Positions 1,809 through 15,910 of a stretch of DNA of 47,685 nt are shown one piece after another. The DNA is taken from the IMG/VR virus record IMGVR_UViG_2513237200_000007; one strand, given 5' to 3'. This DNA comes from a virus. Taxonomy: Duplodnaviria > Heunggongvirae > Uroviricota > Caudoviricetes. The position numbers and the translations under genes were made by a program. Each line of letters begins with the position of its first letter. Positions within the stretch are counted from its first letter, which is position 1. Below the pieces are notes generated by a model, which ran no database searches, was not told where the DNA came from, and worked only from the letters and a program-made list of their open reading frames with translations.

Positions 1809-4286
1809 TTAAGAATCAGCCTGACTCGGGATCAGTTTTTGCCAGATAACTGAAACGTATTTTGCCTGGTAACGGGCGTCATCAAGTGCATTATGGCGCT
1901 CACCTTCGAATGGAATAGCCGTTCTGGCATCGAAGTCTATGGCTTTCCCCAGCTCAACGATTGTGCGTACATCGCGATCGTTGTAGTAACGCCACGGGCA
2001 GGGGATCCCCTGCCGTTCGTATGAACGGCGCAAAATCGTGTTGTCGAAGTTGGCTCCATTTCCCCAAACCTGAACAAAAAATTCACCGGAGTTTTCGTCG
2101 ATAAATTCTCGCAATTGTAACAGTGCATCATCTAACGGGATTTCATCGGTCATAATGGCAGATTGCGCTTCGCGTGATTGCTTAAGCCACCATTTAATGG
2201 TGTCCCGATCAATGACTCCGCCAGCAGTTTCCAGATCGATAGTCTTACTAAATTCCGGTCCCATATCTCCGGTTTGCGGATCGAAAAATATTGCACCTAT
2301 TGAGATGATCGGGGCATCAGGATTTTTTCCCATGGTTTCAAGGTCGATCATTAGATGGTCACACGTCCTGCTGGTGGATGTGATTTCGTGATGACCGTTC
2401 ACCTTAATTGGGTGATCTGCCGTCTCGCCAGTTTCATTATCGCTATTGTGATGCTGATTGCCGCCAGTGTTCTCCTTGTGTGGATGTTCAGCGCCTTCCA
2501 TTTCCTCCGGATCATCTTCCTGAACTTCAACCTGATACTCTTCATCGAATGTTTCTTGGTATGTTGCGTCGCCCATCACCGCGCCACAATCAGGGCAGTT
2601 GCCGCCGCCGGTCTGACCGCAGGCGGTGCAGACTTTTTCCACTTCCTGTTGCGCTACTGGTTCAGGCTGTTTCGTTTCTGGCTCGTTTTGTAACGCATTT
2701 GGACTGTTTTGTTCCGCTTTTTGGTAGTTCCGTTCCGATTCATGCTGGTTCTGGTTCACAGAATCGCGGGTCTGGAGCCCCTTAACCCATTTCGGATCAT
2801 TCGGGTCACTAATCCCTTCAACAAATTCACCACGTGATGCAGCAAGCAACTTATCGGCGTCAGGCTGGCTGATATTGGCTGCCTGCATAATTTTGTTTAC
2901 TTCGTCAGCGGTAACTTTTATCGGCTCTGGTTGTTCTGAATCTTCAGCGGTATCTACATTTTGCGGTAAGCCCGTGTATGTGCCATTTTTTCGGGCAAAA
3001 TATTCTTCTTTTGTGATTTCAGTGGCGCCAGCAGCCAGTGCCTTATCCAGACCAGAGAGTTTGTTTGCGCGACCGTATTTTTCTCCGTCCTTATCTGCGA
3101 AGAGGAAATAGAACGGCCCCTCACGCTCTACAGATGGTTCAGCTTCCGGCGCGGTTTCATTTTTTGGGATATCAGATACCTCAGTTTCCACTGCATCAGT
3201 TTGTGTTTCTGATGACTGGAGAACATCAACAGTGCCCAGGTCTGTTTCTTCATTCTCAAACACGCCCTTTGTCGTCAGGTATTCGCAGATATATTTGTTC
3301 AGTGCTACGGGATCTTTGTGAATGTCGATCGGACGCTCACGGACAAGGCCAAAAATAGTTTGGCGGTCGTAGCGAAGGGCATCAGGCTGTTTGCGCATTG
3401 ATGCCGAGATACGCTTCCAGTCTTCGCGGTCGTTGTCGATAACTTCTTTTTTTGCCCAGCGATGGATGCTGCCGTCAATGTTTCCGGCATCCACATCACT
3501 AGGCCAGAGAGCGTAGGCCAGTTCGTCATCCAGTGTTTTCCATGTCTGCTTGTATTCGCGATGAATGGCAGCAATGACCGGGCTGATTTTTCCTGTTGAA
3601 TTTTCAGTGTACTGTTGATTGGCTCTGGCTCTGGCGCGGGCGAGATCAACAACAGACGTGTATTTTCCGGTTTCCTTGCGTTCACCTTCGCGACGTTTTT
3701 TCCAGATGCGCATCTCTGCCTGAATTTCGGGCCATTTAGCACCAGGAATACATTTATGCTTAACCCACCCAATGGCGTGCAACTTAAGCTCCGGATACAT
3801 GGCGTTAACTTCTGGCATTTTCATCAACGCTTCAACGATATGTCCGTCGAATGTTGCCATGTCTTCCTGCAACAATTCCTGTGCGCTAATAACCATATCA
3901 ACGGTGATGTTTTCACATGTGTCGAACTTAACCATGACAGCGTTCTGTACTTCAGGGGCCAGCTTGTCAAAAGTGACGTTCATCGGATCGGATTCAGTCT
4001 CAACCGGGACAAAAGAAGCAGACTCCTCATCCCAGCGGTTTTCCTGCATATATTCAGCATCCCATGAATCGAGGGCAGGGCGGGGTATGCCAGGTTTATC
4101 CTCGCAGACAATAAATTTATAAGCGCAGTCCTGAGCAGCCGGATAATGTTCCAGGAATTGCCAGTGAAATTTTGCTCGAGCACGGCGTTCGTCGCCAGCT
4201 TCAATGGCTGTGGCTACAGCCACAGCGCCTTCTTCCCTTGTTGCCAGTTCGTCAGGAATAGCGGCGCAAATAAAGACTTTACTCAT
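1809..4286 (-). CDS. RecE-like exonuclease (exodeoxyribonuclease VIII-like) with C-terminal DEDDh 3'-5' exonuclease domain
   Basis: Start taken at MSKVF (ATG 4284-4286) rather than track start 4322. C-terminus has DnaQ-like motifs (MIDLETMG ... WGNGANFD ... HNALDDA); central CxxC...CxxC zinc finger (CTACGQTGGGNCPDCG); acidic linker. Appears to be the intact form of the gene that is fragmentary (ydfE) in K-12 Qin. Confidence 0.8.
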   Translation of the reverse strand: MSKVFICAAIPDELATREEGAVAVATAIEAGDERRARAKFHWQFLEHYPAAQDCAYKFIVCEDKPGIPRPALDSWDAEYMQENRWDEESASFVPVETESDPMNVTFDKLAPEVQNAVMVKFDTCENITVDMVISAQELLQEDMATFDGHIVEALMKMPEVNAMYPELKLHAIGWVKHKCIPGAKWPEIQAEMRIWKKRREGERKETGKYTSVVDLARARARANQQYTENSTGKISPVIAAIHREYKQTWKTLDDELAYALWPSDVDAGNIDGSIHRWAKKEVIDNDREDWKRISASMRKQPDALRYDRQTIFGLVRERPIDIHKDPVALNKYICEYLTTKGVFENEETDLGTVDVLQSSETQTDAVETEVSDIPKNETAPEAEPSVEREGPFYFLFADKDGEKYGRANKLSGLDKALAAGATEITKEEYFARKNGTYTGLPQNVDTAEDSEQPEPIKVTADEVNKIMQAANISQPDADKLLAASRGEFVEGISDPNDPKWVKGLQTRDSVNQNQHESERNYQKAEQNSPNALQNEPETKQPEPVAQQEVEKVCTACGQTGGGNCPDCGAVMGDATYQETFDEEYQVEVQEDDPEEMEGAEHPHKENTGGNQHHNSDNETGETADHPIKVNGHHEITSTSRTCDHLMIDLETMGKNPDAPIISIGAIFFDPQTGDMGPEFSKTIDLETAGGVIDRDTIKWWLKQSREAQSAIMTDEIPLDDALLQLREFIDENSGEFFVQVWGNGANFDNTILRRSYERQGIPCPWRYYNDRDVRTIVELGKAIDFDARTAIPFEGERHNALDDARYQAKYVSVIWQKLIPSQADS

Positions 4287-4378
4287 TTGTTTTAACCTCA
4301 TGACAGATTTAAGGATGAACAAATCCCTGCCATTGCTGGCATATAAGAATGAAACCGGATATTTATTACGGAACTGTT

Positions 4379-4570
4379 TTAAAGACCTGCCGGGATTTCG
4401 ATATTATCCTGGTGAATAACTTTATCGACCGGGTAACAGTTACCGGGAATTTTCTGTTCGGTTGCTGCAGTCATACACTCCTGCATTGTCCTGTGAACAC
4501 TGACTGCAATATCAACTGGCTCTCCGGAAACAAGAAAAACTGTCAGAACAAGCACAAATGCTGAATTCAT
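4379..4570 (-). CDS. ydfD: YdfD-like small protein with N-terminal hydrophobic segment (lysis-associated in Qin)
   Basis: 63 aa from MNSAFVLVLTVFLVSG; its ATG (4568-4570) overlaps the dicB stop (4567-4569), the ATGA coupling seen in the Qin dicB operon. Confidence 0.75.
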   Translation of the reverse strand: MNSAFVLVLTVFLVSGEPVDIAVSVHRTMQECMTAATEQKIPGNCYPVDKVIHQDNIEIPAGL

Positions 4571-4755
4571 TGTGCACATCCTTTTGGCATCAGACGTAAA
4601 CGAGCCAGCATTGAAACAATGCATATTTTATTTAATAGCTCCCGTTCTTGTTTTCTCTTGTTAATGGCATCTTCAGTAAATACTGGGTTACTGATAGTGA
4701 CACCAATTTCAAAACAACCTTCAGACGTATTAACGTTTGGTAATAACGTTTTCAT
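4567..4755 (-). CDS. dicB: cell division inhibitor DicB
   Basis: 62 aa, MKTLLPNVNTSEGCFEIGVTISNPVFTEDAINKRKQERELL..., recognised as DicB from memory; SD GAGGA upstream; located immediately 3' of DicF on same strand. Confidence 0.8.
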   Translation of the reverse strand: MKTLLPNVNTSEGCFEIGVTISNPVFTEDAINKRKQERELLNKICIVSMLARLRLMPKGCAQ

Positions 4756-4924
4756 TATCGCGTCCTCAACAATGAATTTTGTGATGCAGTGCCTGGTGCC
4801 TCCAGGTGACGTTAACCAGTTAACAATTAACGCCGGATACAGAGAATCCACCCATAACACTGTTTTTGGTTTTAACTGTTCCGCGTGCGCTCAGCCGCAT
4901 TCACCACATCACAAAATTCACTTT

Positions 4925-4982
4925 AAAAAGGGCGGCAGAGCAGTCACGGAGTAAAACTGATACCGCCAAACGTCACCAGAAA
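4925..4982 (-). ncRNA. dicF: DicF small regulatory RNA (ftsZ-targeting sRNA) with intrinsic terminator hairpin
   Basis: Reverse complement of 4930-4982 reads TTTCTGGTGACGTTTGGCGGTATCAGTTTTACTCCGTGACTGCTCTGCCGCCC, matching DicF as I recall it; followed by a T-run; sits between ydfC and dicB as in Qin. Confidence 0.85.
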
Positions 4983-5322
4983 ATTGATAACAGAGGGCGT
5001 TGCAGCGGGGTTGTCACTTAAGCGTATGATCAACCTGACAACCCGGTGTCCTCAACGGGGAAGGAATAACCCCGCCATACTTACCGCCGCGCCATTTCGC
5101 GGGTTGCCACAACCGGAAGCGCACGGTCGACGAAAATTTAACGACAGGCTATCTATGAACCAGCTACCTCGCCGTGCGCTTTCGCGTTATGGTCTGACTT
5201 TTCAGGGAAATATCCTTTCAGTAAACTGTCAGTTCCGGATGCGCACCCGTGTCCGGCGCACGCACTCCACCTCACCCGTGGAGAACTCCTTAATTACTAA
5301 CCTTAGCTTTGTTGATTAGCTA

Positions 5323-5541
5323 CTAACGCGGGTATGTAATCATTCTGGCAATGCTTAATGCCGCTGCTTTTTCCAGATTGGTGATATCCTGCTCCAGAGC
5401 GGACAGATTTTCAGCCTGCTTAGCCCTGGCTTCATTAGCCCATTTCAGATCCTGCGCTGCATTAATTTTCTGGCGCATCCACTCATAAAGTTCATCATCG
5501 GTATAGTCTGGCGCGATGATGACGGGTTCTCGTTTCTGCAT
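5323..5541 (-). CDS. ydfC: YdfC-like protein
   Basis: 72-aa ORF in the dicA-distal operon, order and size matching ydfC of Qin. Confidence 0.7.
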   Translation of the reverse strand: MQKREPVIIAPDYTDDELYEWMRQKINAAQDLKWANEARAKQAENLSALEQDITNLEKAAALSIARMITYPR

Positions 5542-5570
5542 ACTGATTCCTCGCGGTGCTGTTTCGCTTA

Positions 5571-5699
5571 TCAGCCGTTAGATTTTGCCGAACTGGAAAG
5601 CGCCTGTTTAAACTCACTGAAGCTGAGAGCTTCTTCGCCTTCGGCAAGGCCTTCGAAGTATTCTTCGTAAGCCTTTTCCATGATTGTGTCGAAATCCAT
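5571..5699 (-). CDS. ydfB: YdfB-like small protein (42 aa; below ORF-track size cutoff)
   Basis: Hand translation of minus strand from ATG 5697-5699: MDFDTIMEKAYEEYFEGLAEGEEALSFSEFKQALSSSAKSNG, stop at 5571-5573; start is 2 nt after the ydfA stop, implying translational coupling. Confidence 0.6.
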   Translation of the reverse strand: MDFDTIMEKAYEEYFEGLAEGEEALSFSEFKQALSSSAKSNG

Positions 5700-5700
5700 A

Positions 5701-5856
5701 TCACTCACCTGAGTTTCTTTCCAGCCAGCGACGGGCACCATTTTCGGTTTTAAACGTTTTGCTTTTGGTATACGTCATTGCGGTGAACGTGCCGTCCTGG
5801 TTTGGAAACACGCCGTACACCAGAGATTCGTTGTTGCCAAGATCGATAGTATCCAT
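5701..5856 (-). CDS. ydfA: YdfA-like small protein
   Basis: 51 aa from MDTIDLGNNESLVYGVFPNQDGTF... (ATG 5854-5856); first gene downstream of dicA on the same strand. Confidence 0.7.
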   Translation of the reverse strand: MDTIDLGNNESLVYGVFPNQDGTFTAMTYTKSKTFKTENGARRWLERNSGE

Positions 5857-6022
5857 GCTGACCTCATTTCCCCTTAACGCTGGGGTAGCGGAACTGTTTG
5901 CTGAGAACACCGTGCGGTGTGTTGATGCAAACAAGATTAGCCATGACTAACATATCGGTCAAGTGATTTTGTATGCTATAGCTAACATAATTGATGTGGT
6001 AAAAGATAACTCATTGATGATG

Positions 6023-6430
6023 TTATCTTTTATTTGTCCGCTGACGGGCTTTTAGTAATTCTTCAAAGAGTTTATTGAAGTTTTTTACTCGAGCTCGCAT
6101 TTCGGCGAGCTGGGTATCCTGTTCTGATTCTGGCAGTGCATTAAACAGCTCAAGGAGCTCTAGTTCTTTGGGGGATAAGGCAACTGGCTTCTCAACAGGT
6201 GGTGTTGGTTGCTTGTCTTCATCGCCAAATAGAATCCATGTTGGTGAGCATTGCAATACTTTGCTGAGGGCAAAAAGGTTCTTCCCTGTAGGTTCACTAT
6301 CACCCCGTTCCCATTGTGATACAGACACATGGGAGATTTTCAGGGCTTTAGCAAGAGACCTTTGGGTGTGTTTGAGGTTTTTCCGACGATACCTGATGCG
6401 TTCGCCGATAGTTAAATTTTTTGTTTCCAT
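6023..6430 (-). CDS. dicA: HTH (XRE/cI-like) repressor DicA
   Basis: 135 aa, METKNLTIGERIRYRRKNLKHTQRSLAKALKISHVSVSQWERGDSEPTGKNLFALSKVL... with clear HTH_XRE motif; divergent from dicC. Confidence 0.85.
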   Translation of the reverse strand: METKNLTIGERIRYRRKNLKHTQRSLAKALKISHVSVSQWERGDSEPTGKNLFALSKVLQCSPTWILFGDEDKQPTPPVEKPVALSPKELELLELFNALPESEQDTQLAEMRARVKNFNKLFEELLKARQRTNKR

Positions 6431-6513
6431 AGTTAGCTAATGCTAAATCGTATTGACTATGTTTTTGTTAACATCTATCTTGTTAGTTATGACTAACAAT
6501 AAAGGTGTTTTAA
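6431..6513. promoter_or_regulatory. divergent dicA/dicC promoter-operator region
   Basis: 83-bp intergenic between divergently transcribed repressor genes; contains palindromes TTAGCTAA, GTTAAC and GTTAGTTATGACTAAC typical of repressor operators. Confidence 0.5.
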
Positions 6514-6744
6514 ATGCTTAAAACTGACGCTCTTTTGTATTTCGGTTCAAAAACAAAACTTGCACAAGCAGCAGGTATTCGTTTGGCTTCGCTTTATAGC
6601 TGGAAAGGGGATTTAGTTCCCGAAGGTCGCGCGATGCGTCTACAGGAGGCATCTGGCGGGGAGCTTCAGTATGATCCCAAAGTTTATGATGAATATCGTA
6701 AGACGAAGCGGGCGGGGCGGTTGAACAATGAAAATCACTCCTGA
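6514..6744 (+). CDS. dicC: Cro-like regulator DicC
   Basis: 76 aa, MLKTDALLYFGSKTKLAQAAGIRLASLYSWKGDLVPEGRAMRLQEASGG...; divergent partner of dicA. Confidence 0.8.
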   Translation: MLKTDALLYFGSKTKLAQAAGIRLASLYSWKGDLVPEGRAMRLQEASGGELQYDPKVYDEYRKTKRAGRLNNENHS

Positions 6745-7249
6745 ACAGGCTCGTGAGGCTCTGGATGCCTGGATATGTCGACCAGGAATGACACAGGAGC
6801 AGGCGACGATATTAATCACTGAAGCATTCTGGGCTTTGAAAGAGCGCCCGAACATCGATGTTCAGCGTGTCACATATGAAGGTGGCGCGATTGATCAGCG
6901 AGCGCTTGGCGTTAATCGAGTGAAGATATTTGAACGCTGGAAGGCTATCGACACCAGGGATAAGCGTGAAAAGTTCACGGCGCTAGTGCCTGCAATTATG
7001 GAGGCTATCCGGATTAATGATTTCAGGTTGTATCGTGAAATTACTGACGGAAAAAGCATCACGTGCATGATCGCCGGGTTAAACAAAGAATATGGCGATG
7101 TGGTGGAGTCCGGACTGCTTTTTGCTGATCCTGCCGTAGTGGATCGTGAAACTGACGAACTTATAGAAAAAGCAATTGCTTTCAAACTTGCGTATCGACA
7201 GCAATACCAACAAAAAGCTGGATGGAATTATGAGCCTTCTTTTTGCTGA
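6728..7249 (+). CDS. YdfX-like protein (intact form; CII-position regulatory or YdaT-like protein)
   Basis: 173-aa ORF overlapping dicC end by 17 nt; N-terminus MKITPEQAREALDAWICRPGMTQEQ... resembles the ydfX fragment of K-12 Qin as I recall it; function not established. Confidence 0.55.
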   Translation: MKITPEQAREALDAWICRPGMTQEQATILITEAFWALKERPNIDVQRVTYEGGAIDQRALGVNRVKIFERWKAIDTRDKREKFTALVPAIMEAIRINDFRLYREITDGKSITCMIAGLNKEYGDVVESGLLFADPAVVDRETDELIEKAIAFKLAYRQQYQQKAGWNYEPSFC

Positions 7250-8195
7250 ACGCCCACTGGTTATAAACACGCAGCTGGCAATGAAAATTGGCTTAAACGA
7301 AGCCATTGTTTTGCAACAACTGCACTACTGGTTGAGAGATACCAACTCCGGCATGGAATGTGATGGTGTTCGCTGGATTTATAACACAACGGAACAATGG
7401 CTGGAACAGTTCCCATTCTGGTCAGAGTCAACGTTAAAGCGCGCGTTTGCAAGTCTGAAAACGCTGGGGCTTTTGCGTTGTGAAAAGCTCAATAAATCAA
7501 AGCGCGATATGACCAATTTCTACACGATCAACTATGGGAGCGAGCTTTTAGATGGTGGCAAATTGAGCGAATCCATCGGTTCAAAATGCGCCGCTCCATC
7601 AGGTCAAAATGACACGATGGAAGAGGTCAAAATGAAACGCTCCATTGGTTCAAAACGACCCAATGTCATCGGGTCAAAATGGCCTGATGATCTTACAGAG
7701 AATACAACAGAGATTACTACAGAGAATAAAAACACTTTTCGTCCGGAAGCTTCGCAACCGGACCCGCAGACGACTGAACAGGATTTTTTAACCCGGAACT
7801 CCGACGCGGTTGTGTTTAGTGCGAAAAAACGCCAGTGGGGTAGCAGGGAGGATTTGGCGTGTGCGCAGTGGATCTGGGGGCGGATCGTGGGTCTCTACGA
7901 ACAGGCAGCCAGTGATGATGGCGAGATCATGCGACCAAAAGAGCCTAACTGGACTGCCTGGGCCAATGACGTGCGCACAATGCGGATGCTGGATGGCAGA
8001 AGCCACAGACAAATTTGCGAAATGTTTGGTCGGGTTCAGCGAGATCCATTCTGGGTAAAAAACATCATGAGCCCGTCAAAGCTCCGCGAAAAATGGGACG
8101 AACTGGTCATCCGCCTGGGACGTTCACCTGTACAGCGTTGTGTTAATCATATTTCTGAACCGGATACAGAAATTCCGCCTGGTTTCAGAGGATAA
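7230..8195 (+). CDS. phage replication initiation protein (O-like, N-terminal DNA-binding domain)
   Basis: Start at MSLLFAERPLVINTQLAMKIGLNEAIVLQQLHYWL (ATG 7230); contains an internal iteron array at the DNA level, as lambda O contains ori. Confidence 0.65.
   Translation: MSLLFAERPLVINTQLAMKIGLNEAIVLQQLHYWLRDTNSGMECDGVRWIYNTTEQWLEQFPFWSESTLKRAFASLKTLGLLRCEKLNKSKRDMTNFYTINYGSELLDGGKLSESIGSKCAAPSGQNDTMEEVKMKRSIGSKRPNVIGSKWPDDLTENTTEITTENKNTFRPEASQPDPQTTEQDFLTRNSDAVVFSAKKRQWGSREDLACAQWIWGRIVGLYEQAASDDGEIMRPKEPNWTAWANDVRTMRMLDGRSHRQICEMFGRVQRDPFWVKNIMSPSKLREKWDELVIRLGRSPVQRCVNHISEPDTEIPPGFRG
7571..7681 (+). repeat. five direct iterons with about 23-bp periodicity inside the replication gene, followed by an AT-rich stretch (putative ori)
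   Basis: Cores GGTTCAAAATG (7578), GGTCAAAATG (7602), GGTCAAAATG (7625), GGTTCAAAACG (7648), GGGTCAAAATG (7671); followed by AT-rich 7683-7745. Confidence 0.6.
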
Positions 8196-8235
8196 GTGTT
8201 GATTTCAGGTCATGAGGTAATTTTAAGGGGGACTT

Positions 8236-8658
8236 GTGGCAAAAGTTTTTACACAAGAAGAGCGGGAAAAAATTAAATGGCAGGTGGTGGAACTCGTGCG
8301 CCAGAGCGGCCGTGAGACGTTACGGCAACTGGAAGCTAAAACAGGTGCGACTAGATATCTGATGAGCGTTCTTGCCAGAGAGCTGGTAGCCAGTGGCGAT
8401 GTATACAACTCCGGCTACGGGTTATTCCCCTCTGAACAGGCGCGTAAGGACTGGCAAAACGCCCGCAAAAAACTCTCGAGGGCAAAGGTGAAGAAACCTG
8501 CTGTGGTTGATCCGGACCTTATCTGGTCATCACCTGACGGAGAAATACGTCGCTACGACAGTCGCCTAAACATAATCTGTCGCGAGTGCCGGAAGAGCGA
8601 AGTTATGCAGCGCATACTGGCTTTCTATCAGGGTAATTTTCAGGACGTGGCGCAGTGA
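8236..8658 (+). CDS. hypothetical protein (GTG start), translationally coupled to the downstream methyltransferase remnant
   Basis: 140-aa ORF with strong SD AAGGGGG 4-5 nt upstream of GTG 8236; stop overlaps the GTG of the next ORF (GTGA). No recognisable motif beyond a C-terminal CxxC. Confidence 0.5.
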   Translation: MAKVFTQEEREKIKWQVVELVRQSGRETLRQLEAKTGATRYLMSVLARELVASGDVYNSGYGLFPSEQARKDWQNARKKLSRAKVKKPAVVDPDLIWSSPDGEIRRYDSRLNIICRECRKSEVMQRILAFYQGNFQDVAQ

Positions 8659-9101
8659 GTGCACCGGCAACCATTCTTGATATGTGCTGTGGCAGCCGCA
8701 TGTTCTGGTTCGATAAGTCTGACGAACGGGCGATATTCAGCGATATCAGAAAAGAAGGATACACATTACGCAATGGGAGACGCTTGATTATCAGCCCTGA
8801 CATTATCGCAGATTTTCGTGCATTATCATTTGCAGACGCATCTTTTTCGATGGTTGTATTAGACCCTCCGCATCTTGAGAGTGTTGGTGATAACGCCTGG
8901 ATGGGAAAGAAATATGGACGGCTGAATAAAGATGCCTGGCGTGATGATTCGCGACAGAGATTTAAAGAAGCCTTTCGGGTGTTGAGGCCGCACGGCGTTC
9001 TGATTTTTTAATGGAATGAAACGCAAATACCGGTAAGCCAGATTCTGGCACTGACAGACAGAAAACCTGTTATCTGTCAACGAACAGGGAAAAAACGATA
9101 A
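8655..9101 (+). pseudogene. DNA methyltransferase remnant, truncated by in-frame TAA at 9009-9011
   Basis: N-terminal SAM-binding-like LDMCCGSR and catalytic-like VLDPPH motifs within 118 aa, then TAA; frame stays open a further 29 codons to the stop at 9099-9101; too short for a functional MTase. Confidence 0.45.
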
Positions 9102-9621
9102 AACCCACTGGATTATTTTTATGAAAGAGGCATCCAGTGAGTAGATTCGTAAGGCTACAGATACGTATATCTGAATAATTAAATTCAGTTCTGTAAATAA
9201 AATTTAATCCTTAACCGGATGGATTTCTGCACCCTCAGAACATCAGGAGGCCGCCCGAAAGGGCGGTAGTGAAATGCGAAAGTTCAAAATTATTATTGAA
9301 ACGGGAATAGCTGGTGGAGATTTTGAGGATGTATTCGAAGTGGACGATGACGCAACACCTGAGGAAATTCATGACGGAGCATAAGAAATTTTCTTTAACT
9401 ACTGCAATTACTCATACCACGAAATAAAAGACGATGAGGAAGAACAAAGTGGCTGATTTTTGTTCAGCTAAATATAACATCAGTTTTGAAGAGCGGGATG
9501 AACTATTAATGGACTATGGTGAGTTACGCGGTGGAAGTGCTGCTGATGTCGAATCCTAGCGTGATGACTATGAAGCGGGAAAAACTCCGGTCGAAGCATA
9601 TTGTGATGAGTGGGGCGATGA

Positions 9622-9909
9622 ATGAGCGAGATTAATTATCAGGAAGGGCATGAAACGGCGGGGCAAGCAAAACCAGTGGCATGGCGATATCGCTACGTGA
9701 AAAAAGGCGTTACGGACTTTCAGGGGAAGTAGTGGTCTGGTGACTGGAAATATGTACCGAAAAAAGAGGATTGTAACGACAGGCCGAACTATCAAATTCA
9801 GGCCTTATTCACTGCCTCACCAGTCCCAGTTACATCAGAAGAACTGGTTAAAGCTGTGCACTTTTATGAACAACTAAAACGCGAAAATCCACCAACATCC
9901 GGCAACTAG
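9622..9909 (+). pseudogene. small ORF interrupted by a single in-frame amber codon (TAG 9730-9732)
   Basis: MSEINYQEGHETAGQAKPVAWRYRYVKKGVTDFQGK-TAG-WSGDWKYVPKKEDCNDRPNYQIQALFTASPVPVTSEELVKAVHFYEQLKRENPPTSGN; 36 codons, stop, then 58 open codons in the same frame. Confidence 0.3.
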
Positions 9910-10163
9910 ATTAATGGATTAACTATGTCGGTTAAACGACCAGCCAACTGAAAAAGCGGAAACCTGATTACAGGTTGCCAGATAAGGCAATGAGCTACCT
10001 GGCGCGGAACGGACTGATAAGTATGGGGAATGTTTTACGATGAACCTTTAGACTAAAGAGTTTGTAACGCTATGTAAGTGATTTTTTCTGGTTTAGATAT
10101 TTATATGTCCGGCCAAATTGAGGTGTGTTTAAATGTAATTGCACATTGATTGTAGGAGGAATA

Positions 10164-10343
10164 ATGAAAAACGCATTGCAGTTTTTGTTTGTTGCGTTCT
10201 GGTTGTTCGCATCATGTATGCCCATCATCTTCACAGCAAGGTATATGGAAAAAGTTGATGTTTTGATATTAATATTTGGATATATAAATGCCCTTTTTTT
10301 AGGGGTGTTCATGGCGGTCATGTGCATTGAATACTGGCGGTAA
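10164..10343 (+). CDS. small predicted membrane protein (59 aa, two hydrophobic segments)
   Basis: MKNALQFLFVAFWLFASCMPIIFTARYMEKVDVLILIFGYINALFLGVFMAVMCIEYWR; strong SD AGGAGGA 4 nt upstream of ATG 10164. Confidence 0.45.
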   Translation: MKNALQFLFVAFWLFASCMPIIFTARYMEKVDVLILIFGYINALFLGVFMAVMCIEYWR

Positions 10344-10599
10344 ATACAGCGAACTCCATTGGTTTAGTTGGATATTTACTGTGCTGGACAAAAACGGTTT
10401 GCGGGGAAATCTTAGTTAAGTAGAATGACTGCGGGTGCTTGAGGCTATCTGCCTCGGGCATGGACACCAACGGCAGATAGAGAAAAGCCCCAGTTAACAT
10501 TACGCGTCCTGCAAGACGCTTAACATTAATCTGAGGCCAATTTCATGCTAGACACATGTAGGTTAGCCTCTTACGTGCCGAAAGGCACGGAGAAGCAGG

Positions 10600-12050
10600 C
10601 TATTGTTAACACCAAGCTGTAATGTCCCCTTTGAACCATTCTAAAATGTCCCCAGACAATTCTCTCGTGGATTTTTCATGATCAAAGAGACTGTTACGAT
10701 GAGTCATAAGGAACTCCACCGACTTCAGATTATTCAGGAACAAGCTGCGGCACGCATTGGCATTTCTATTCGGCAGGTTAAACGTCTGGTGCAACGGTAT
10801 AGAAATGAAGGGCCTTCTGGTCTGGTTTCCCACCGACGTGGAAAGCGTCCTAATAATTCCTTTTCTACTGAATTCAGAGCAACAGTAATTTCACTCCTCA
10901 AAGGCCGTTACGCTGATTTTGGACCTACGTTTGCGTGCGAAAAATTGCGCGAGATACACGGTTTATCTTTATCCGTTGAAACTCTCAGAAAGTGGATGAT
11001 AGAAGAGGGGTTATGGCGTGAACGCCGTCGTAAAATTGCCCGTATATATCAACGCCGCATGCGACGACCATCTTACGGTGAACTGATCCAGATTGATGGC
11101 TCACCTCATGACTGGTTTGAAAATCGAGGCCCCAGATGTACACTGATCGTTTTCATTGATGATGCCACCAGTGCGTTGATGGCGTTGCGTTTTGTGCCTG
11201 CTGAAACAACCCGGGCTTACATGGAAACCCTCCGGGGTTACCTTAATGATCATGGCGTACCGCTCGCTCTCTACTCTGATAGACACAGTATATTCAGGGT
11301 AAATAACCCAGAGCGGGAAGGTGAGCTGACCCAGTTCACTCGTGCGATAAAGACACTGGGCATCGAGCCAATCCATGCCAACAGCCCGCAGGCAAAAGGG
11401 CGGGTAGAGCGCGCCAATCAGACACTACAGGACAGGCTGGTCAAAGAAATGCGGCTTCAGAATATCAGTGATATTGAAACAGCAAATGCATGGTTGCCGA
11501 CCTTTATTGAAGCCTATAACAACCGGTTCGCTACGTCGCCTCGTACTACTGATAATGCTCATCTTGATGTGCACCATTCTGAAGAGGAACTGGGTTATAT
11601 CTTCAGCCTACAGGCGAAGCGCGTTCTGTCTAAAAATCTCACTTTCCAGTACAAAAGCAGTGCGTTTCAGGTACGCAGTGAGGGCCGGGGATATCGACTT
11701 AGGCATTCGGTTGTTACTGTATGCGAGAACTTTGACGGTGAAATTAACGTTCTGTATGACGGGAAAGCGCTGGGCTGGGAAAAGTATGTTGATGGCCCGG
11801 AGCCTATACCACTGGATGATGAAAAGAGTGTCCATGAACGAGTGGATAATGCCCGTATTGATTTACGCTCAAAATACTATGTTAAACCTAAAGCTGACCA
11901 TCCCTGGCTTACGCGCCGAACGCAAAGTCATCAGCAAGTTAAGCCCCCGAAGTTACCTAAAAAGAAGCCTGATCCCGATAAAAAAGATTGAAACCAAGAT
12001 CGATTCGGTTGAGTGCATATCCATTCATAGGGTAGATTCTTAAGTCGCGT
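10600..12050 (+). mobile_element. insertion sequence carrying an rve-type DDE transposase (IS481/ISNCY-like); ends not resolved
   Basis: Single transposase ORF with flanking non-coding sequence, lying where K-12 Qin has only pseudogenes; I could not identify terminal inverted repeats by eye, so coordinates are approximate. Confidence 0.35.
10678..11991 (+). CDS. DDE transposase with N-terminal HTH and retroviral-integrase-like (rve) catalytic core
   Basis: 437 aa; N-terminal HTH (HRLQIIQEQAAARIGISIRQVKRLVQRY), catalytic D (IQIDGSPHDWF), D (YSDRHSIF), E (KGRVERANQTLQDRL). Possible alternative start at MSHKEL (10699). Confidence 0.8.
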   Translation: MIKETVTMSHKELHRLQIIQEQAAARIGISIRQVKRLVQRYRNEGPSGLVSHRRGKRPNNSFSTEFRATVISLLKGRYADFGPTFACEKLREIHGLSLSVETLRKWMIEEGLWRERRRKIARIYQRRMRRPSYGELIQIDGSPHDWFENRGPRCTLIVFIDDATSALMALRFVPAETTRAYMETLRGYLNDHGVPLALYSDRHSIFRVNNPEREGELTQFTRAIKTLGIEPIHANSPQAKGRVERANQTLQDRLVKEMRLQNISDIETANAWLPTFIEAYNNRFATSPRTTDNAHLDVHHSEEELGYIFSLQAKRVLSKNLTFQYKSSAFQVRSEGRGYRLRHSVVTVCENFDGEINVLYDGKALGWEKYVDGPEPIPLDDEKSVHERVDNARIDLRSKYYVKPKADHPWLTRRTQSHQQVKPPKLPKKKPDPDKKD

Positions 12051-12427
12051 TTCTGGTGTTCATTTTCGGGTGGTTTGTTACTTGTTTTACCGGGGATATG
12101 CCAGAAACGCGCTGAGTCAGTCTGGGCGGTGCGCGTAATGAGGCGTTATGGTAAATAGCCTATGCTAATGTCCGCTAAGAGCAAGAAGCGGAAGTTGGCA
12201 GTTTTGTGGACTGTCCCCACAAAAGTGACTACAGAAATAGTTGCAATTCATAATTGATCATGGGTTGTCAGTTAAACTCGTGGCGATTTAAATAGACTAA
12301 TTGGGAGTGCGTCCATTACTTATATCTTGTAATGTTAACTATCAGAAATGATACAAAGATAATATGTCTTTAAAGAAAAGGCTGATGGCGAAAAGTGGCC
12401 CGATGAGGGCCACAATACGGCTGTCAC

Positions 12428-12760
12428 TTAGACGTAAATATCAATGGTGCCAGCGGTATTTGTATCGTCTTTTTTCTCTTCTTTTTTATCAGGCTGAACT
12501 GTCGCGTCTTCATTCTTTTTCTCTGCCTGCTGCCTTAACAACTGCTCCAGTTGAGCCCAGAGGCTTTCAATTTGCTTCTGTACCAATGCAGCCATTTCTT
12601 TTTTCTGCTGTGTCGTCATCCCCTCTTCCGATGAGATTTTCCCAAGCTTTTCAGTCAGCACCTGAATTTGTCTTGTGATTTTGGCTATTTCTGATGTTCC
12701 TTCCGGGGCGGAGTTGTTTGAAATAACGGTTGAGGTATTTCCCTGAATTGTGACAGACAT
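12428..12760 (-). CDS. flxA: FlxA-like protein (FliA-regulated)
   Basis: 110 aa, MSVTIQGNTSTVISNNSAPEGTSEIAKITRQIQVLTEKLGK..., recognised as FlxA; preceded by a sigma-28 consensus promoter. Confidence 0.85.
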   Translation of the reverse strand: MSVTIQGNTSTVISNNSAPEGTSEIAKITRQIQVLTEKLGKISSEEGMTTQQKKEMAALVQKQIESLWAQLEQLLRQQAEKKNEDATVQPDKKEEKKDDTNTAGTIDIYV

Positions 12761-12783
12761 AGATTTCTCCTTTTAAAAAAGCA

Positions 12784-12810
12784 CTATCGGCATGCACAAA
12801 AAAATCTTTA
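12784..12810 (-). promoter_or_regulatory. sigma-28 (FliA) promoter upstream of flxA
   Basis: Minus strand reads TAAAGATT-N11-GCCGATAG, against consensus TAAAGTTT-N11-GCCGATAA, about 25 nt upstream of the flxA ATG. Confidence 0.7.
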
Positions 12811-12962
12811 ATCGTATTTCTTGTGTCATTAATTGTTTGATGTTCAGATTGTTTTCCTCGCGGGCTGGCGCGCCTCAGAAAGTAAAGCTTGTTGACAGGG
12901 GTAAACGTTCGGCAATAATTTTCTGCCGCATGCGGGTGTTGCATAAAACGTGTTACGTTCCT

Positions 12963-13268
12963 TTATCGACAGGTCAGGTCACCGCTCACCCGCCGACGAG
13001 AAAGCAACACTGACATGCTAAAGCAAAAAATAGATGAATAAGTTGAGTTGTGCATATGTAGCCTGACCGTCACAAAGTATATGGTGTCTGTACCAGTAAG
13101 ATGATGGCCGGACTCTTTAAAAACGAGCTGACCTGCACAATACAGGATGGACTTAGCAATGGCTGCTCCTGGCACAAAGCGGACAGTGATCACCGTTCTT
13201 ACGACTACTTTCTGACTTCCTTCGTGACTTGCCCTAAGCATGTTGTAGTGCGATACTTGTAATGACAT
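12963..13268 (-). CDS. hypothetical ORF (YdfV-like by position and length)
   Basis: 101-aa ORF between relB promoter and flxA; composition is not convincingly protein-like; kept only because position and length match a gene annotated in Qin. Confidence 0.3.
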   Translation of the reverse strand: MSLQVSHYNMLRASHEGSQKVVVRTVITVRFVPGAAIAKSILYCAGQLVFKESGHHLTGTDTIYFVTVRLHMHNSTYSSIFCFSMSVLLSRRRVSGDLTCR

Positions 13269-13283
13269 TTGTAATTACAAGAG
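13229..13283 (+). promoter_or_regulatory. relB promoter with relO-like operator
   Basis: -35 TTGCCC (13229-13234), 17-nt spacer, -10 GATACT (13252-13257); operator-like inverted repeats CTTGTAATGACATTTGTAATTACAAG overlapping -10 and start site. Confidence 0.6.
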
Positions 13284-13292
13284 GTGTAAGAC

Positions 13293-13532
13293 ATGGGTAG
13301 CATTAACCTGCGTATTGACGATGAACTTAAAGCGCGTTCTTACGCCGCGCTTGAAAAAATGGGTGTAACTCCTTCTGAAGCGCTTCGTCTCATGCTCGAG
13401 TATATCGCTGACAATGAACGCTTGCCGTTCAAACAGACACTCCTGAGTGATGAAGATGCTGAACTTGTGGAGATAGTGAAAGAACGGCTTCGTAATCCTA
13501 AGCCAGTACGTGTGACGCTGGATGAACTCTGA
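13293..13532 (+). CDS. relB: RelB antitoxin
   Basis: 79 aa, MGSINLRIDDELKARSYAALEKMGVTPSEALRLMLEYIADNERLPF...; stop overlaps relE start. Confidence 0.9.
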   Translation: MGSINLRIDDELKARSYAALEKMGVTPSEALRLMLEYIADNERLPFKQTLLSDEDAELVEIVKERLRNPKPVRVTLDEL

Positions 13533-13819
13533 TGGCGTATTTTCTGGATTTTGACGAGCGGGCACTAAAGGAATGGCGAAAGCTGGGCTCGACGGTACGT
13601 GAACAGTTGAAAAAGAAGCTGGTTGAAGTACTTGAGTCACCCCGGATTGAAGCAAACAAGCTCCGTGGTATGCCTGATTGTTACAAGATTAAGCTCCGGT
13701 CTTCAGGCTATCGCCTTGTATACCAGGTTATAGACGAGAAAGTTGTCGTTTTCGTGATTTCTGTTGGGAAAAGAGAACGCTCGGAAGTATATAGCGAGGC
13801 GGTCAAACGCATTCTCTGA
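13532..13819 (+). CDS. relE: RelE mRNA interferase toxin
   Basis: 95 aa, MAYFLDFDERALKEWRKLGSTVREQLKKKLVEVLESPRIE...; ATGA overlap with relB. Confidence 0.9.
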   Translation: MAYFLDFDERALKEWRKLGSTVREQLKKKLVEVLESPRIEANKLRGMPDCYKIKLRSSGYRLVYQVIDEKVVVFVISVGKRERSEVYSEAVKRIL

Positions 13820-13890
13820 ACCAAAGCATGACATCTCTGTTTCGCACCGAAGGTGACACTTCTGCTTTGCGTTGACAGGAGAAGCAGGCT

Positions 13891-14046
13891 ATGAAGCAGC
13901 AAAAGGCGATGTTAATCGCCCTGATCGTCATCTGTTTAACCGTCATAGTGACGGCACTGGTAACGAGGAAAGACCTCTGCGAGGTACGAATCCGAACCGG
14001 CCAGACGGAGGTCGCTGTCTTCACAGCTTACGAACCTGAGGAGTAA
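13891..14046 (+). CDS. hokD: HokD (RelF) small membrane toxin, 51 aa (below ORF-track cutoff)
   Basis: Hand translation from ATG 13891: MKQQKAMLIALIVICLTVIVTALVTRKDLCEVRIRTGQTEVAVFTAYEPEE, stop TAA 14044-14046; Hok family features. Confidence 0.8.
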   Translation: MKQQKAMLIALIVICLTVIVTALVTRKDLCEVRIRTGQTEVAVFTAYEPEE

Positions 14047-14114
14047 GAGACCCGGCGGGGGAGAAATCCCTCGCCACCTCTGATGTGGCAGGCATCCTCA
14101 ACGCACCCGCACTT

Positions 14115-14140
14115 AACCCGCTTCGGCGGGTTTTTGTTTT
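14115..14140 (+). terminator. rho-independent terminator after relBE-hokD
   Basis: Hairpin CCCGC-TTCG-GCGGG followed by TTTTTGTTTTT. Confidence 0.6.
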
Positions 14141-14262
14141 TATTTTCAACGCGTTTGAAGTTCTGGACGGTGCCGGAATAGAATCAAAAATACTTAAGTA
14201 GCGCGCAGGGATAAGAGGGATGGTCCCTTAAAGGGGAGAGCTAATTATCCGGAAGGATTCTG

Positions 14263-14514
14263 ATGATGAACATCGAAGAACTGCGTAAAATTTTTTGTGA
14301 AGATGGCCTCTATGCTGTGTGCGTTGAAAATGGAAATCTTGTTAGTCATTACCGCATTATGTGTTTGCGAAAGAATGGGGCTGCGTTAATTAATTTTGTG
14401 GATGCTCGGGTCACGGACGGATTTATCTTGCGCGAAGGTGAGTTTGTCACTTCATTACAGGCATTGAAAGAGATCGGAATAAAAGCTGGCTTTTCTGCTT
14501 TTTCAGGAGAATAA
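14263..14514 (+). CDS. rem: Rem-like protein
   Basis: 83 aa, MMNIEELRKIFCEDGLYAVCVENGNLVSHYRIMCL...; position between hokD and ydfU as in Qin. Confidence 0.7.
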   Translation: MMNIEELRKIFCEDGLYAVCVENGNLVSHYRIMCLRKNGAALINFVDARVTDGFILREGEFVTSLQALKEIGIKAGFSAFSGE

Positions 14515-14580
14515 ACTCATCTACAATCTTGCGCGGGGCTGAACTCCCGCTGAGTAACACCGTGCCACCGGAGAAAACCG

Positions 14581-14859
14581 ATGGCACGCAACGCAAAATA
14601 TTACAATTCTGATAATTCGCCCGTTCTTGCCTGCACGCACGGGCGGTATTCTCACGCATTCAAGTCTGAATGGTTCCAGCACCCTCCATGCACTGCAGAA
14701 CAGGCCGAATGGCTGATTCATTCTTACCGCAGGCGCGGGTTCGAGGTTAAGAAAGCTCTCAGTCTCGACTATCGGCACTGGATAATCTCTGTCAGGCTGC
14801 CTTATTCCGAACGCCCACCACGTGCGTCCCGCACTTTCCAGCAACGGATCTGGAGGTAA
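14581..14859 (+). CDS. hypothetical protein (nin-region-like)
   Basis: 92-aa ORF with SD GGAG; its stop at 14857-14859 immediately precedes the ydfU GTG (14861). Confidence 0.4.
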   Translation: MARNAKYYNSDNSPVLACTHGRYSHAFKSEWFQHPPCTAEQAEWLIHSYRRRGFEVKKALSLDYRHWIISVRLPYSERPPRASRTFQQRIWR

Positions 14860-14860
14860 C

Positions 14861-15910
14861 GTGCGGGTATTACTTAGACCTGTTCTGGTGCCTGAGCTTG
14901 GGCTGGTGGTCCTTAAGCCGGGCCGTGAATCCATACAGATATTTCATAATCCTCGAGTGCTGGTGGAACCGGAACCAAAAAGCATGCGTAATCTGCCATC
15001 CGGAGTCGTTCCTGCCGTTCGCCAGCCGCTGGCGGAAGACAAAACATTGCTGCCGTTTTTTAGTAACGAACGGGTGATTCGTGCTGCTGGCGGCGTTGGC
15101 GCATTGTCCGACTGGCTATTACGTCATGTTACATCCTGCCAGTGGCCTAATGGCGATTACCATCACACTGAAACAGTCATTCACCGTTATGGTACCGGCG
15201 CAATGGTGTTGTGCTGGCACTGCGACAACCAACTGCGTGACCAGACATCGGAATCACTGGAGCTGCTTGCTCAACAAAATCTGACAGCATGGGTGATTGA
15301 CGTCATCCGTCACGCAATAAGCGGTACGCAGGAGCGGGAATTATCTTTGGCTGAATTATCCTGGTGGGCGGTCTGCAATCAGGTGGTGGATGCACTACCT
15401 GAGGCTGTATCGCGTCGTTCGCTGGGATTACCAGCGGAAAAAATCTGCTCGGTGTACCGCGAAAGCGACATCGTACCGGGAGAGCAGACCGCCACCAGCA
15501 TATTGAAACAACGCACAAAAAATCTTGCACCGTTGCCTTACGCCCACCAGCAACAAAAATCACCACAGGAAAAGACGGTGGTAAGCATCACCGTTGATCC
15601 AGAGTCTCCGGAATCTTTCATGAAGCTGCCTAAACGTCGCCGCTGGGTTAAGGAGAAATACACACGTTGGGTTAAGACACAGCCGTGTGCTTGCTGCGGT
15701 ATGCCAGCCGACGATCCGCATCATCTGATTGGTCACGGGCAGGGCGGAATGGGAACAAAAGCACATGATCTCTTTGTGTTGCCTTTGTGCAGAAAGCATC
15801 ACAACGAGCTGCATACGGATACAGTGGCATTTGAAGATAAGTATGGCTCCCAACTGGAGCTGATATTTCGTTTTATCGATCGCGCGCTGACAATTGGCGT
15901 ACTGGCGTAA
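14861..15910 (+). CDS. ydfU: YdfU-like protein (DUF968; HNH-like Cys/His motif)
   Basis: 349 aa from GTG 14861 with SD GGAGG 4 nt upstream; C-terminal CACCGMPADDPHHLIGHG...CRKHHNELH motif. Confidence 0.75.
   Translation: MRVLLRPVLVPELGLVVLKPGRESIQIFHNPRVLVEPEPKSMRNLPSGVVPAVRQPLAEDKTLLPFFSNERVIRAAGGVGALSDWLLRHVTSCQWPNGDYHHTETVIHRYGTGAMVLCWHCDNQLRDQTSESLELLAQQNLTAWVIDVIRHAISGTQERELSLAELSWWAVCNQVVDALPEAVSRRSLGLPAEKICSVYRESDIVPGEQTATSILKQRTKNLAPLPYAHQQQKSPQEKTVVSITVDPESPESFMKLPKRRRWVKEKYTRWVKTQPCACCGMPADDPHHLIGHGQGGMGTKAHDLFVLPLCRKHHNELHTDTVAFEDKYGSQLELIFRFIDRALTIGVLA

Follow-up and report, generated by a model that had tools for sequence, protein, structure and literature searches.

A relBE-carrying ISEsa1-type transposon that very probably split a prophage hokD/sok locus at the hokD start

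Introduction

Insertion sequences (ISs) of the IS1202 family carry imperfect terminal repeats together with an internal copy of the inner part of those repeats (PMC10132070), and the target-site duplications (TSDs) of the family measure 5-6, 16-17 or 27-28 bp according to subgroup (PMC10132070; bioRxiv 10.1101/2022.12.17.520857). One member, ISEsa1, is listed with a length of 1609 bp, 15/22 repeats, 'no TSD detected' and no known target (PMC10132070). Here, we describe an ISEsa1-type element in a 47,685-nucleotide stretch of caudoviral DNA (IMG/VR record IMGVR_UViG_2513237200_000007; this whole stretch is referred to as the window), where the element carries the toxin-antitoxin genes relBE and very probably split a second toxin-antitoxin locus, hokD/sok, at the start of hokD.

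Pedersen and Gerdes (Mol Microbiol 1999) reportedly found chromosomal hok loci of Escherichia coli K-12 to be inactivated by IS150/IS186 or by rearrangement, and are said to have put the defect of hokD down to rearrangement. In K-12, relBE and relF/hokD share one transcript, and hokD/relF is known to lack upstream regulators and to be positioned behind relBE (PMC3598666). Type II toxin-antitoxin pairs are carried by Tn3-family transposons (PMC7157771). For the window, an original prediction made from the letters of the DNA had placed an IS at 10380-12300, led by a hairpin-rich region that was taken for the leader of its transposase gene.

Results

Limits of the element

Compared with a transposon-free E. 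coli locus (L001), whose surrounding prophage genes are the same, the window has an insert of exactly 3274 bp and a second copy of GGAGAAGCAGGCTAT, which sets the mobile element at 10604-13877. The 15-bp GGAGAAGCAGGCTAT occurs as exact copies at 10589 and 13878 and as a single copy in L001, and it is the only repeated 15-mer having both copies in the region. The left copy (10589-10603) extends from the hokD Shine-Dalgarno sequence through the 'AT' of the ATG, and the right copy (13878-13892) restores the Shine-Dalgarno sequence and ATG for hokD; the left junction reads ...GGAGAAGCAGGCTAT/TGTTAACACC... and the right one ...GCGTTGACA/GGAGAAGCAGGCTATG.... Position 10603 is the last base homologous to transposon-free loci, and position 10604 is the first that is homologous to ISEsa1-type copies on plasmids.

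The left terminal inverted repeat (IRL), TGTTAACACCAAGCTGTAATGTCCCC at 10604-10629 (plus strand), pairs with the right one (IRR), ...GGTGACACTTCTGCTTTGCGTTGACA at 13852-13877 (minus strand); IRL and the reverse complement of IRR match at 19/26 positions, with TGT...ACA at the tips (binomial P about 4e-7). The inner part of IRL is repeated subterminally as ACCATTCTAAAATGTCCCC at 10635-10653 (plus strand; direct repeat D2), and a mirrored repeat near IRR, at about 13828-13846, is part of the right end. AATGTCCCC stands 18 and 42 nt from the left tip, and the ATGTC core stands 19-20 and 43 nt from the right tip; these subterminal repeats presumably offer the transposase a second binding site.

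The range of 10380-12300 was therefore not borne out at either end: the element starts at 10604, includes flxA, ydfV and relBE, and ends 1.6 kb farther to the right. The self-alignment that had been proposed for finding the ends, of the left end with the reverse complement of 11990-12430, yielded only noise, the best ungapped match to IRL in the reverse complement of 12000-12420 being 13/22. An inner right end at about 12320-12342 (GTAATGTTAAC) was considered and dropped, its support being the palindrome GTTAAC alone. A simple IS has one open reading frame (ORF) and a length of 1.3-2.0 kb; with 3274 bp and four passengers (flxA, ydfV, relB and relE), the present element is not a simple IS but a transporter IS or small transposon.

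The orphaned hok/sok leader

The hairpin-rich region upstream of the transposase gene belongs to the target. The Rfam family sok/hok (RF01794) covers 10433-10604 over model positions 1-157, the whole model, with 104.1 bits (E = 1e-23; gathering score 59), and the final AUG of the model reads AUU in the window. The RNA of 10433-10604 folds at -64.5 kcal/mol versus -46.1 +/- 4.0 kcal/mol for shuffled sequences (z = -4.7; 0/200 shuffles as good). The hairpins and the repeated motif that had been reported here are all present and, by the fold and the RF01794 match, exceed chance: CTATCTGCC at 10445 pairs with GGCAGATAG at 10472 (exact string search), GCGTC-CTGCAA-GACGC lies at 10504-10519, GTGCC-GAAA-GGCAC lies at 10575-10588, and TTAACATTA occurs at both 10494 and 10520. 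What has to be given up is the assignment of this region of about 300 bp to the transposase gene. Region 10433-10603 (plus strand) lies outside IRL and is target DNA, the 5' regulatory half of the interrupted hokD/sok locus, comprising the 5' end of hok mRNA, the mok start and the Sok-complementary region.

Window 10300-10603 matches E. coli genomes at 86-98% identity upstream of genes annotated hokD or Hok/Gef, and these matches before hokD-type genes invariably end at 10603; the leader is contiguous with hokD, without the transposon, in 4029/5426 E. coli genomes. The leader of L001 is 98% identical and continues into the hokD ATG without interruption. In the window, the hokD (relF) toxin ORF (13891-14046, plus strand; Pfam HOK_GEF, 82.9 bits) stands 3.3 kb to the right of its leader, behind relB and relE and 72 bp downstream of the latter. 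A Hok/Gef ORF thus adjoins the leader in L001 and not in the window, and for this reason the hok/sok locus of the window is regarded as a disrupted member of its family.

Could the hairpin region nevertheless be a true 5' leader of the transposase gene, or a regulatory RNA of the element, either antisense-controlled or guide-type? It is directly upstream, co-directional and strongly structured, and transcription from the hok promoter could physically continue into the transposase gene. However, it lies beyond IRL and beyond the duplication, the same sequence accompanies hokD in the genomes lacking the transposon, the hok/sok family match runs from end to end, and the left flanks of copies elsewhere are unrelated. 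We therefore grant this explanation only a very slight chance, and treat the region as the severed half of hokD/sok.

The left duplication copy, as read from the sequence, now continues as ATT into IRL, and the truncated mok frame stops within IRL. Because the right copy again supplies a ribosome-binding site and ATG, hokD should remain translatable; it would have lost its promoter, its coupling to mok and its Sok target. A simple scan for sigma-70 promoter and terminator sites detected none in the window leader or in the intact locus.

The right end and mobile relatives

A one-genome-per-species collection contains 118 occurrences of the 18-nt right tip TTCTGCTTTGCGTTGACA, spread over 117 sequence stretches. 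The tip terminates simple, single-gene relatives of 1.59-1.6 kb in Pseudomonadales and related genomes; the transposases of these relatives are 55-61% identical to that of the window, and the relatives have the left tip TGTTAGCGCAAAGC.GTAATGTCCCC and eight different 16-bp duplications. Because it ends simple relatives having such duplications, TTCTGCTTTGCGTTGACA is the ancestral right end of the IS lineage to which the present element belongs, and this lineage makes duplications of roughly 16 bp.

Larger relatives were found on plasmids and elsewhere, and they show that the unit is mobilized in its entirety. A 12.8-kb version in a Klebsiella plasmid (transposase 98% identical) carries nickel-resistance and other cargo, relBE and the same IRR, and has its own 16-bp duplication GGAGTTGTATGGGTCC; a 6093-bp version in Enterobacter and Superficieibacter has the duplication GGAGAAGAAGGCCAT, which likewise flanks a 9.2-kb unit, devoid of a transposase gene, on another Klebsiella plasmid. 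On a virulence plasmid of Klebsiella, another hok is occupied by a copy that ISEc52 has interrupted (duplication GGAGAAAAAGGCTAT), and a 78%-identical relative with different cargo is placed between a hok leader and its ATG (duplication GAAGTAAGCTAT). Flanks and duplications differ across L006, L008, L012, L013, L036 and L058, which by sequence is the mark of a mobile element. The duplication measures 15 bp in the window (16 bp counting an ambiguous A), 16 bp in the eight simple relatives and L008, 15 bp in L036/L100 and L013, 14 bp in L058 and 12-13 bp in L012.

Two further observations concern right tips. The last 44 nt of the right end occur by themselves, with no annotated feature, in NZ_CP033605.1 at 2607731-2607774 (E. 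coli O157:H7 TR01; hit H202), and this remnant may represent a solo end or the terminus of a related element. Among the distant simple relatives, TTGAC follows the right tip at an offset of 15-17, just beyond the 16-bp duplication, in 14 ends (right flanks of L023, L025, L028, L035, L039, L040, L057, L059, L065, L084, L092, L109, L119 and L130; Pseudomonadales, Azotimanducaceae). These represent roughly one-third to one-half of the ends of this type, the chance expectation being about 0.3% per end; such relatives may target sequences like their own end (own tip GTTGACA) or -35 boxes.

Modules and cargo

Copies of the element share a left module, 10604 to 12186/12196, in which IRL and the transposase gene are followed by about 200 bp of non-coding DNA; homology to the plasmid copies stops at 12186 (L006) or 12196 (L005). 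The non-coding end of this module (11992-12196, plus strand) is conserved. Within it, a perfect 11-bp stem (inverted repeat I12) is formed by 12046-12056 and 12101-12111 (CGCGTTTCTGG and CCAGAAACGCG) around a 44-nt loop, and the stem at 12046-12111 has no Rfam match. Lineage-specific cargo on the minus strand follows at 12197-13164, namely, flxA (12428-12760; Pfam FlxA, 53.8 bits) and most of ydfV (12963-13268); full flxA and ydfV are confined to Escherichia/Shigella copies, and other genera have different cargo between the conserved modules.

The right module (13165-13851, plus strand) contains the relB promoter region, relB (13293-13532) and relE (13532-13819), which overlap at 13532, and spans about 13165-13877 with IRR in shared copies. 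RelB matches Pfam RelB (PF04221) with 112 bits and RelE matches ParE_toxin (PF05016) with 51 bits, and the RefSeq protein accessions of both are the same as in K-12 MG1655. In a Klebsiella plasmid, the right module is 98.8% identical, whereas the transposase part is just 90% identical; relE (92-100% identity) adjoins the same right tip in about 25 species.

This modular structure bears on the published length of ISEsa1. If the element were ISEsa1 as catalogued, approximately 1.6 kb long (10604 to about 12190) and without a duplication, then flxA, ydfV and relBE would be ordinary Qin genes, and the 15-bp repeat and IRR would be coincidental. The published table (1609 bp, 15/22 repeats, no duplication; PMC10132070) conflicts with our delimitation, and homology among copies with differing cargo does stop at 12186-12196, about 1610-1620 bp from IRL, a length that the left module attains when 27 bp missing from its transposase gene are restored. 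Against this, nothing above the 13/22 match is present in 12000-12420; the transposon-free locus lacks all 3274 bp and not merely 1.6 kb; the tip at 13877 is the conserved end of distant simple relatives with 16-bp duplications; the whole unit stands between matching duplications in three further contexts; and the two modules co-occur in E. coli, the relBE-plus-tip module being present in 1247/5426 complete genomes and the transposase module in 1267/5426. The shorter element is thus largely refuted already and has a small chance of being right. The comparison, in which ISEsa1 is represented by the values of the published table, suggests that the catalogue sets the right end where the cargo starts to differ; the poor repeats and the missing duplication of the listing would thereby be explained.

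Transposase gene and family assignment

The transposase ORF with helix-turn-helix (HTH) and DDE regions, as originally predicted, was confirmed at 10678-11991 (plus strand; 437 aa). It matches the NCBIfam model NF033594 (transpos_ISNCY_2) with 456.4 bits over residues 14-368 (cut-off 250); Pfam detects HTH_32/HTH_29/HTH_28 in its N-terminal part and a weak, sub-threshold rve_3 match. Of the two families considered at the outset, the ISNCY-like assignment stands and the IS481-like one does not, the IS481 model NF033577 reaching 125.7 bits, under its cut-off of 224. The element belongs to the IS1202 family (formerly the ISNCY/IS1202 group) and is of ISEsa1 type.

The 437-aa protein corresponds to the 446-aa plasmid protein WP_004196353, named 'IS1202-like element ISEsa1 family' in RefSeq, minus 9 aa, and is otherwise identical to it. 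The deletion comprises 27 bp in frame (QESINRHIT) between 10733 and 10734, in the N-terminal DNA-binding region; it is bordered by short direct repeats, and the residues are kept in all relatives examined. RefSeq labels the transposase gene as 'incomplete; missing C-terminus' at window 10699-11721 (in L002), in L003 and in L004 (3575-4645). The frame is open to 11991 and, save for the 9 aa, full-length relative to the RefSeq protein; the label is probably an annotation artefact.

A different reading of this ORF, as an integrase-like prophage gene that is decaying or has been domesticated, could appeal to the annotation of ydfW/ydfX as pseudogenes in K-12 and to the RefSeq mark of incompleteness. 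It was to hold if repeats and duplication were absent and the gene kept its place in IS-free relatives. On the contrary, repeats, duplication and empty site were all found, the protein matches a DDE family, identical protein-coding copies are present on plasmids of several genera, and no tyrosine or serine recombinase domain of an integrase family was among the Pfam or NCBIfam hits. Because of the empty site and the terminal repeats, the integrase-like reading is refuted and retains next to no probability; the ORF is that of an IS1202-family transposase.

Target choice at hok starts

Enterobacterial right ends comprise about ten distinct hok flank variants, in which the tip is followed by a hok ribosome-binding site and ATG; these include hokD, at least five R1-like plasmid alleles, a Buttiauxella allele, a HokE-like gene (Kluyvera cryocrescens) and Kosakonia alleles. 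Two lineages of the element occupy hok starts, namely, the relBE type and the 78%-identical type, which carries a RelE/ParE-family toxin-antitoxin pair and other cargo. Each hok locus has its own duplication, the same on both sides, and two of these equal an unoccupied allele seen elsewhere. In different genera, relB and relE are 100% identical beside HokD, HokE-like and R1-like hok genes, and because such identical proteins stand beside very different Hok proteins, the insertions are separate recent events and not the result of co-divergence. Since relatives repeatedly take one position across different hok genes, the region of the hok translation start is probably a preferred target of the clade, and we consider a strong preference for this region likely.

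One may object that there is no preference at all, and that one ancient insertion into a hok gene reached other hok loci by homologous recombination of the hok flanks, or that hok copies became over-represented through selection for insertions disarming hok or through the wide spread of a few plasmids. Many hok-site copies indeed have the same plasmid-type flank (one being common to six species), ISKpn28 and an IS150-like element also strike hok leaders, which would point to selection or fragility of the site, and many right ends are at non-hok sites. However, the duplications are locus-specific and the same on both sides (GGAGAAGCAGGCTAT, GGAGAAAAAGGCTAT, GGAGAAGAAGGCCAT and GAAGTAAGCTAT), two of them being the native unoccupied allele (L001 for hokD, and the hok of L008 for the allele of L006); relE is 100% identical beside HokD, HokE-like and R1-like genes that are too divergent for homologous exchange; two lineages with 78% transposase identity and different right-end subterminal sequences occupy the same position; and selection does not explain precision to the base. 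We regard the absence of any preference as unlikely and a preference for hok starts as the better account. Where the enterobacterial clade has inserted outside hok, no sequence consensus was found among its target sites.

When 14 related loci were scanned with Rfam at the gathering threshold, a hok leader was detected in L073 alone; the remaining loci have hok leaders that other IS elements cut short or that fall outside the 8-kb blocks. The leader in L073 (2548-2730; Citrobacter portucalensis) is complete (94.7 bits), inverted and directly against the right tip, which indicates that the element inserted in reverse orientation or that an inversion took place between two copies. Tandem copies occur in L118 (Leclercia sp. 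EMC7) and L110 (a metagenome-assembled genome of Pseudomonadales), where the right tip is followed by 10 or 15 nt and a second left tip; the spacer in L118, GAAGGCTATG, is a hok start.

Other ISs were encountered at hok leaders as well. The end ...CTGTGTGAACTTACACA of ISKpn28, an IS481-like element, abuts the GGAG of the hok ribosome-binding site in three plasmids (L006 at 3354-3411, L013 at about 14100-14157, and L008 on both sides of the transposon), and the bond of contact is the one where the duplication of the relBE transposon starts. In L008, a tandem ISKpn28 pair has the transposon in its 5-bp junction, at a distance of 1.1 kb from a hok gene, and the second ISKpn28 borders on a GGAGAAAAAGGCTATG-hok that is uninterrupted. 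The hok leaders of two different loci, in L012 (reverse strand, about 14540) and in L036 (about 530-555)/L100, are truncated at one and the same position by an IS150-like end (TGTCCAACTTTTTGGGGTCAGTACA). Given these ISKpn28 and IS150-like ends, hok leaders have been struck repeatedly by at least three types of IS.

K-12 and variants in E. coli

In E. coli K-12 MG1655 (L131), the counterpart of window 4006-7007 (99.9% identity) is followed directly by that of 11807-15400 (100%). The missing segment, 7008-11806 (4799 bp), holds the 3' part of a ydaT-family gene, neighboring prophage genes, the hok leader, IRL and the first 376 transposase codons. K-12 has the same insertion minus these 4799 bp, which leaves ydfW as the tail of the transposase: 'ydfW' (11842-11991, plus strand; RefSeq coordinates in L002 and L131) is the last 49 transposase codons from an in-frame GTG, and ydfX is the 5' stump of the ydaT-family gene. 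The statement that K-12 carries only int-like pseudogenes here is thus right as to the remnant, which begins at 11807 and is annotated ydfW/ydfX, and not borne out as to its nature, no integrase family being among the Pfam or NCBIfam hits.

RefSeq entry NZ_CP026085.1 (L002; 4.83 Mb), labeled 'DH5alpha', is 100% identical to window 10300-12450; because K-12 strains lack window 7008-11806, this label looks wrong. In a deletion variant of E. coli OkiPb01703 (L004, 3480-3525), a DUF977 gene is joined to the final bases of the leader (...GCCGGAAGGCAAGGAGAAG/TGTTAACATC), and the leader is missing together with 8 nt from the left duplication copy.

Discussion

The course of events that we propose is as follows. 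A Qin-type lambdoid prophage would have held a complete hokD/sok locus, into which an ISEsa1-type transposon of the IS1202 family inserted; the DDE transposase would bind terminal and subterminal repeats at both ends, with cuts in the target 15-16 bp apart. The left duplication copy stayed with the now-orphaned leader, and the right copy rebuilt the hokD ribosome-binding site and ATG, so that hokD lies just downstream of relBE. Freed from mok/Sok control, hokD would be transcribed from the relBE promoter, and the insertion would mark the origin of the relB-relE-hokD ('relBEF') operon, for which we infer that transposon insertion is the simplest source.

Several observations weigh against this account. 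The window transposase has a deletion, and RefSeq flags the gene as a pseudogene; the duplication length is not constant (12-13 bp in L012, 14 bp in L058 and otherwise 15-16 bp); and the published listing of ISEsa1 disagrees with our limits. In E. coli chromosomes, the element is essentially single-copy and at one locus (median one place per genome), with no sign of recent movement. Several right ends are at non-hok sites, and hok targeting is therefore a preference and not a rule; part of the hok excess could stem from plasmid spread or selection. Finally, the simple scan saw no promoter-like site for Sok or hok in the leader, and for that reason our statements on expression are inferred. On balance, we consider it very probable that a relBE-carrying ISEsa1-type transposon, spanning 10604-13877, split hokD/sok at the hokD start. 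The copy in the window is probably an immobile, fixed relic passed on with the prophage, because its transposase, with 9 aa missing from the DNA-binding region, is probably crippled.

The transposase family, hok/sok, relBE, and the passenger-carrying and site-specific members of the family are already known. In the searchable literature (which does not cover subscription journals), we found no account of the limits of the ISEsa1-type unit or of its 15-16-bp duplication, of relBE as constant right-end cargo, of recurrent insertion at hok starts, or of such an explanation of relBEF and ydfW. Our analysis offers an answer to a question left open by the 2023 analysis of the IS1202 family, in which ISEsa1-type elements were reported to show neither a duplication nor a target. 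It also touches the origin of a textbook locus: relBE of E. coli appears to be transposon cargo, hokD/relF would stand behind relBE through a landing at its start codon, and the K-12 'pseudogenes' ydfW/ydfX would be debris of a later deletion. Nickel-resistance and other cargo travels on the same backbone in conjugative Klebsiella/Enterobacter plasmids, and correct ends thus matter for annotating the mobility of resistance.

We speculate, as a possibility that we hold to be less likely than its opposite, that elements of the ISEsa1 clade home to hok starts, sever mok/Sok control and install their own type II pair upstream, which may be relBE here and a parDE-like or GNAT/DUF1778 pair in relatives. 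If true, this would amount to the take-over of an addiction module, in which the replicon stays addictive and the resident toxin gene is captured, with K-12 relBEF as one fossil of the process; precise insertion between a toxin gene and its antisense control would make a testable case of one addiction module displacing another.

How does this element compare with described systems? It resembles the IS1202 family in its transposase of approximately 440 aa with an N-terminal HTH and a DDE core, in its 24-26-bp TGT...ACA repeats and in its long duplication, which agrees with the 16-17-bp subgroup. It differs from ISEsa1 as listed in its length (3274 bp here, and 6.1 and 12.8 kb elsewhere), its 19/26 repeats, its 15-16-bp duplication, the presence of relBE beside the right end, its variable cargo and its recurrent hok target. 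Like the transporter ISs tISKpn21, tISKpn65 and tISRel10, it holds passengers between the transposase gene and the right end; however, those elements carry one unrelated hypothetical ORF, make 5-bp duplications and lie beside dif-like XerC/D sites, whereas the present one carries a functional-looking toxin-antitoxin pair and exchangeable cargo of 1 to 10 kb and makes duplications of 15-16 bp. The ISAjo2/ISAba32 subgroup of the IS1202 family, which inserts 5-6 bp from XerC-binding sites, shares with it oriented and precise insertion by a short structured site as well as tandem insertions (L118 and L110), but the sites here are hok starts (in distant relatives, 16 bp upstream of TTGAC) and not dif-like, and the preference is not absolute.

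In Tn3-family transposons, as here, a type II pair is constant with the transposition module and other cargo is variable; the transposase family and mechanism are not the same, and the pair of Tn3-family transposons lies by resolvase/res, whereas the pair described here abuts the right terminal repeat of an element that enters another toxin-antitoxin locus. As in the K-12 hok loci reportedly inactivated by IS150/IS186, the toxin gene has been parted from its regulators by an insertion near, and not in, its frame. In contrast to the earlier account of hokD, non-K-12 strains still have the missing leader, 3.3 kb upstream, and the cause is very probably a relBE transposon with defined ends.

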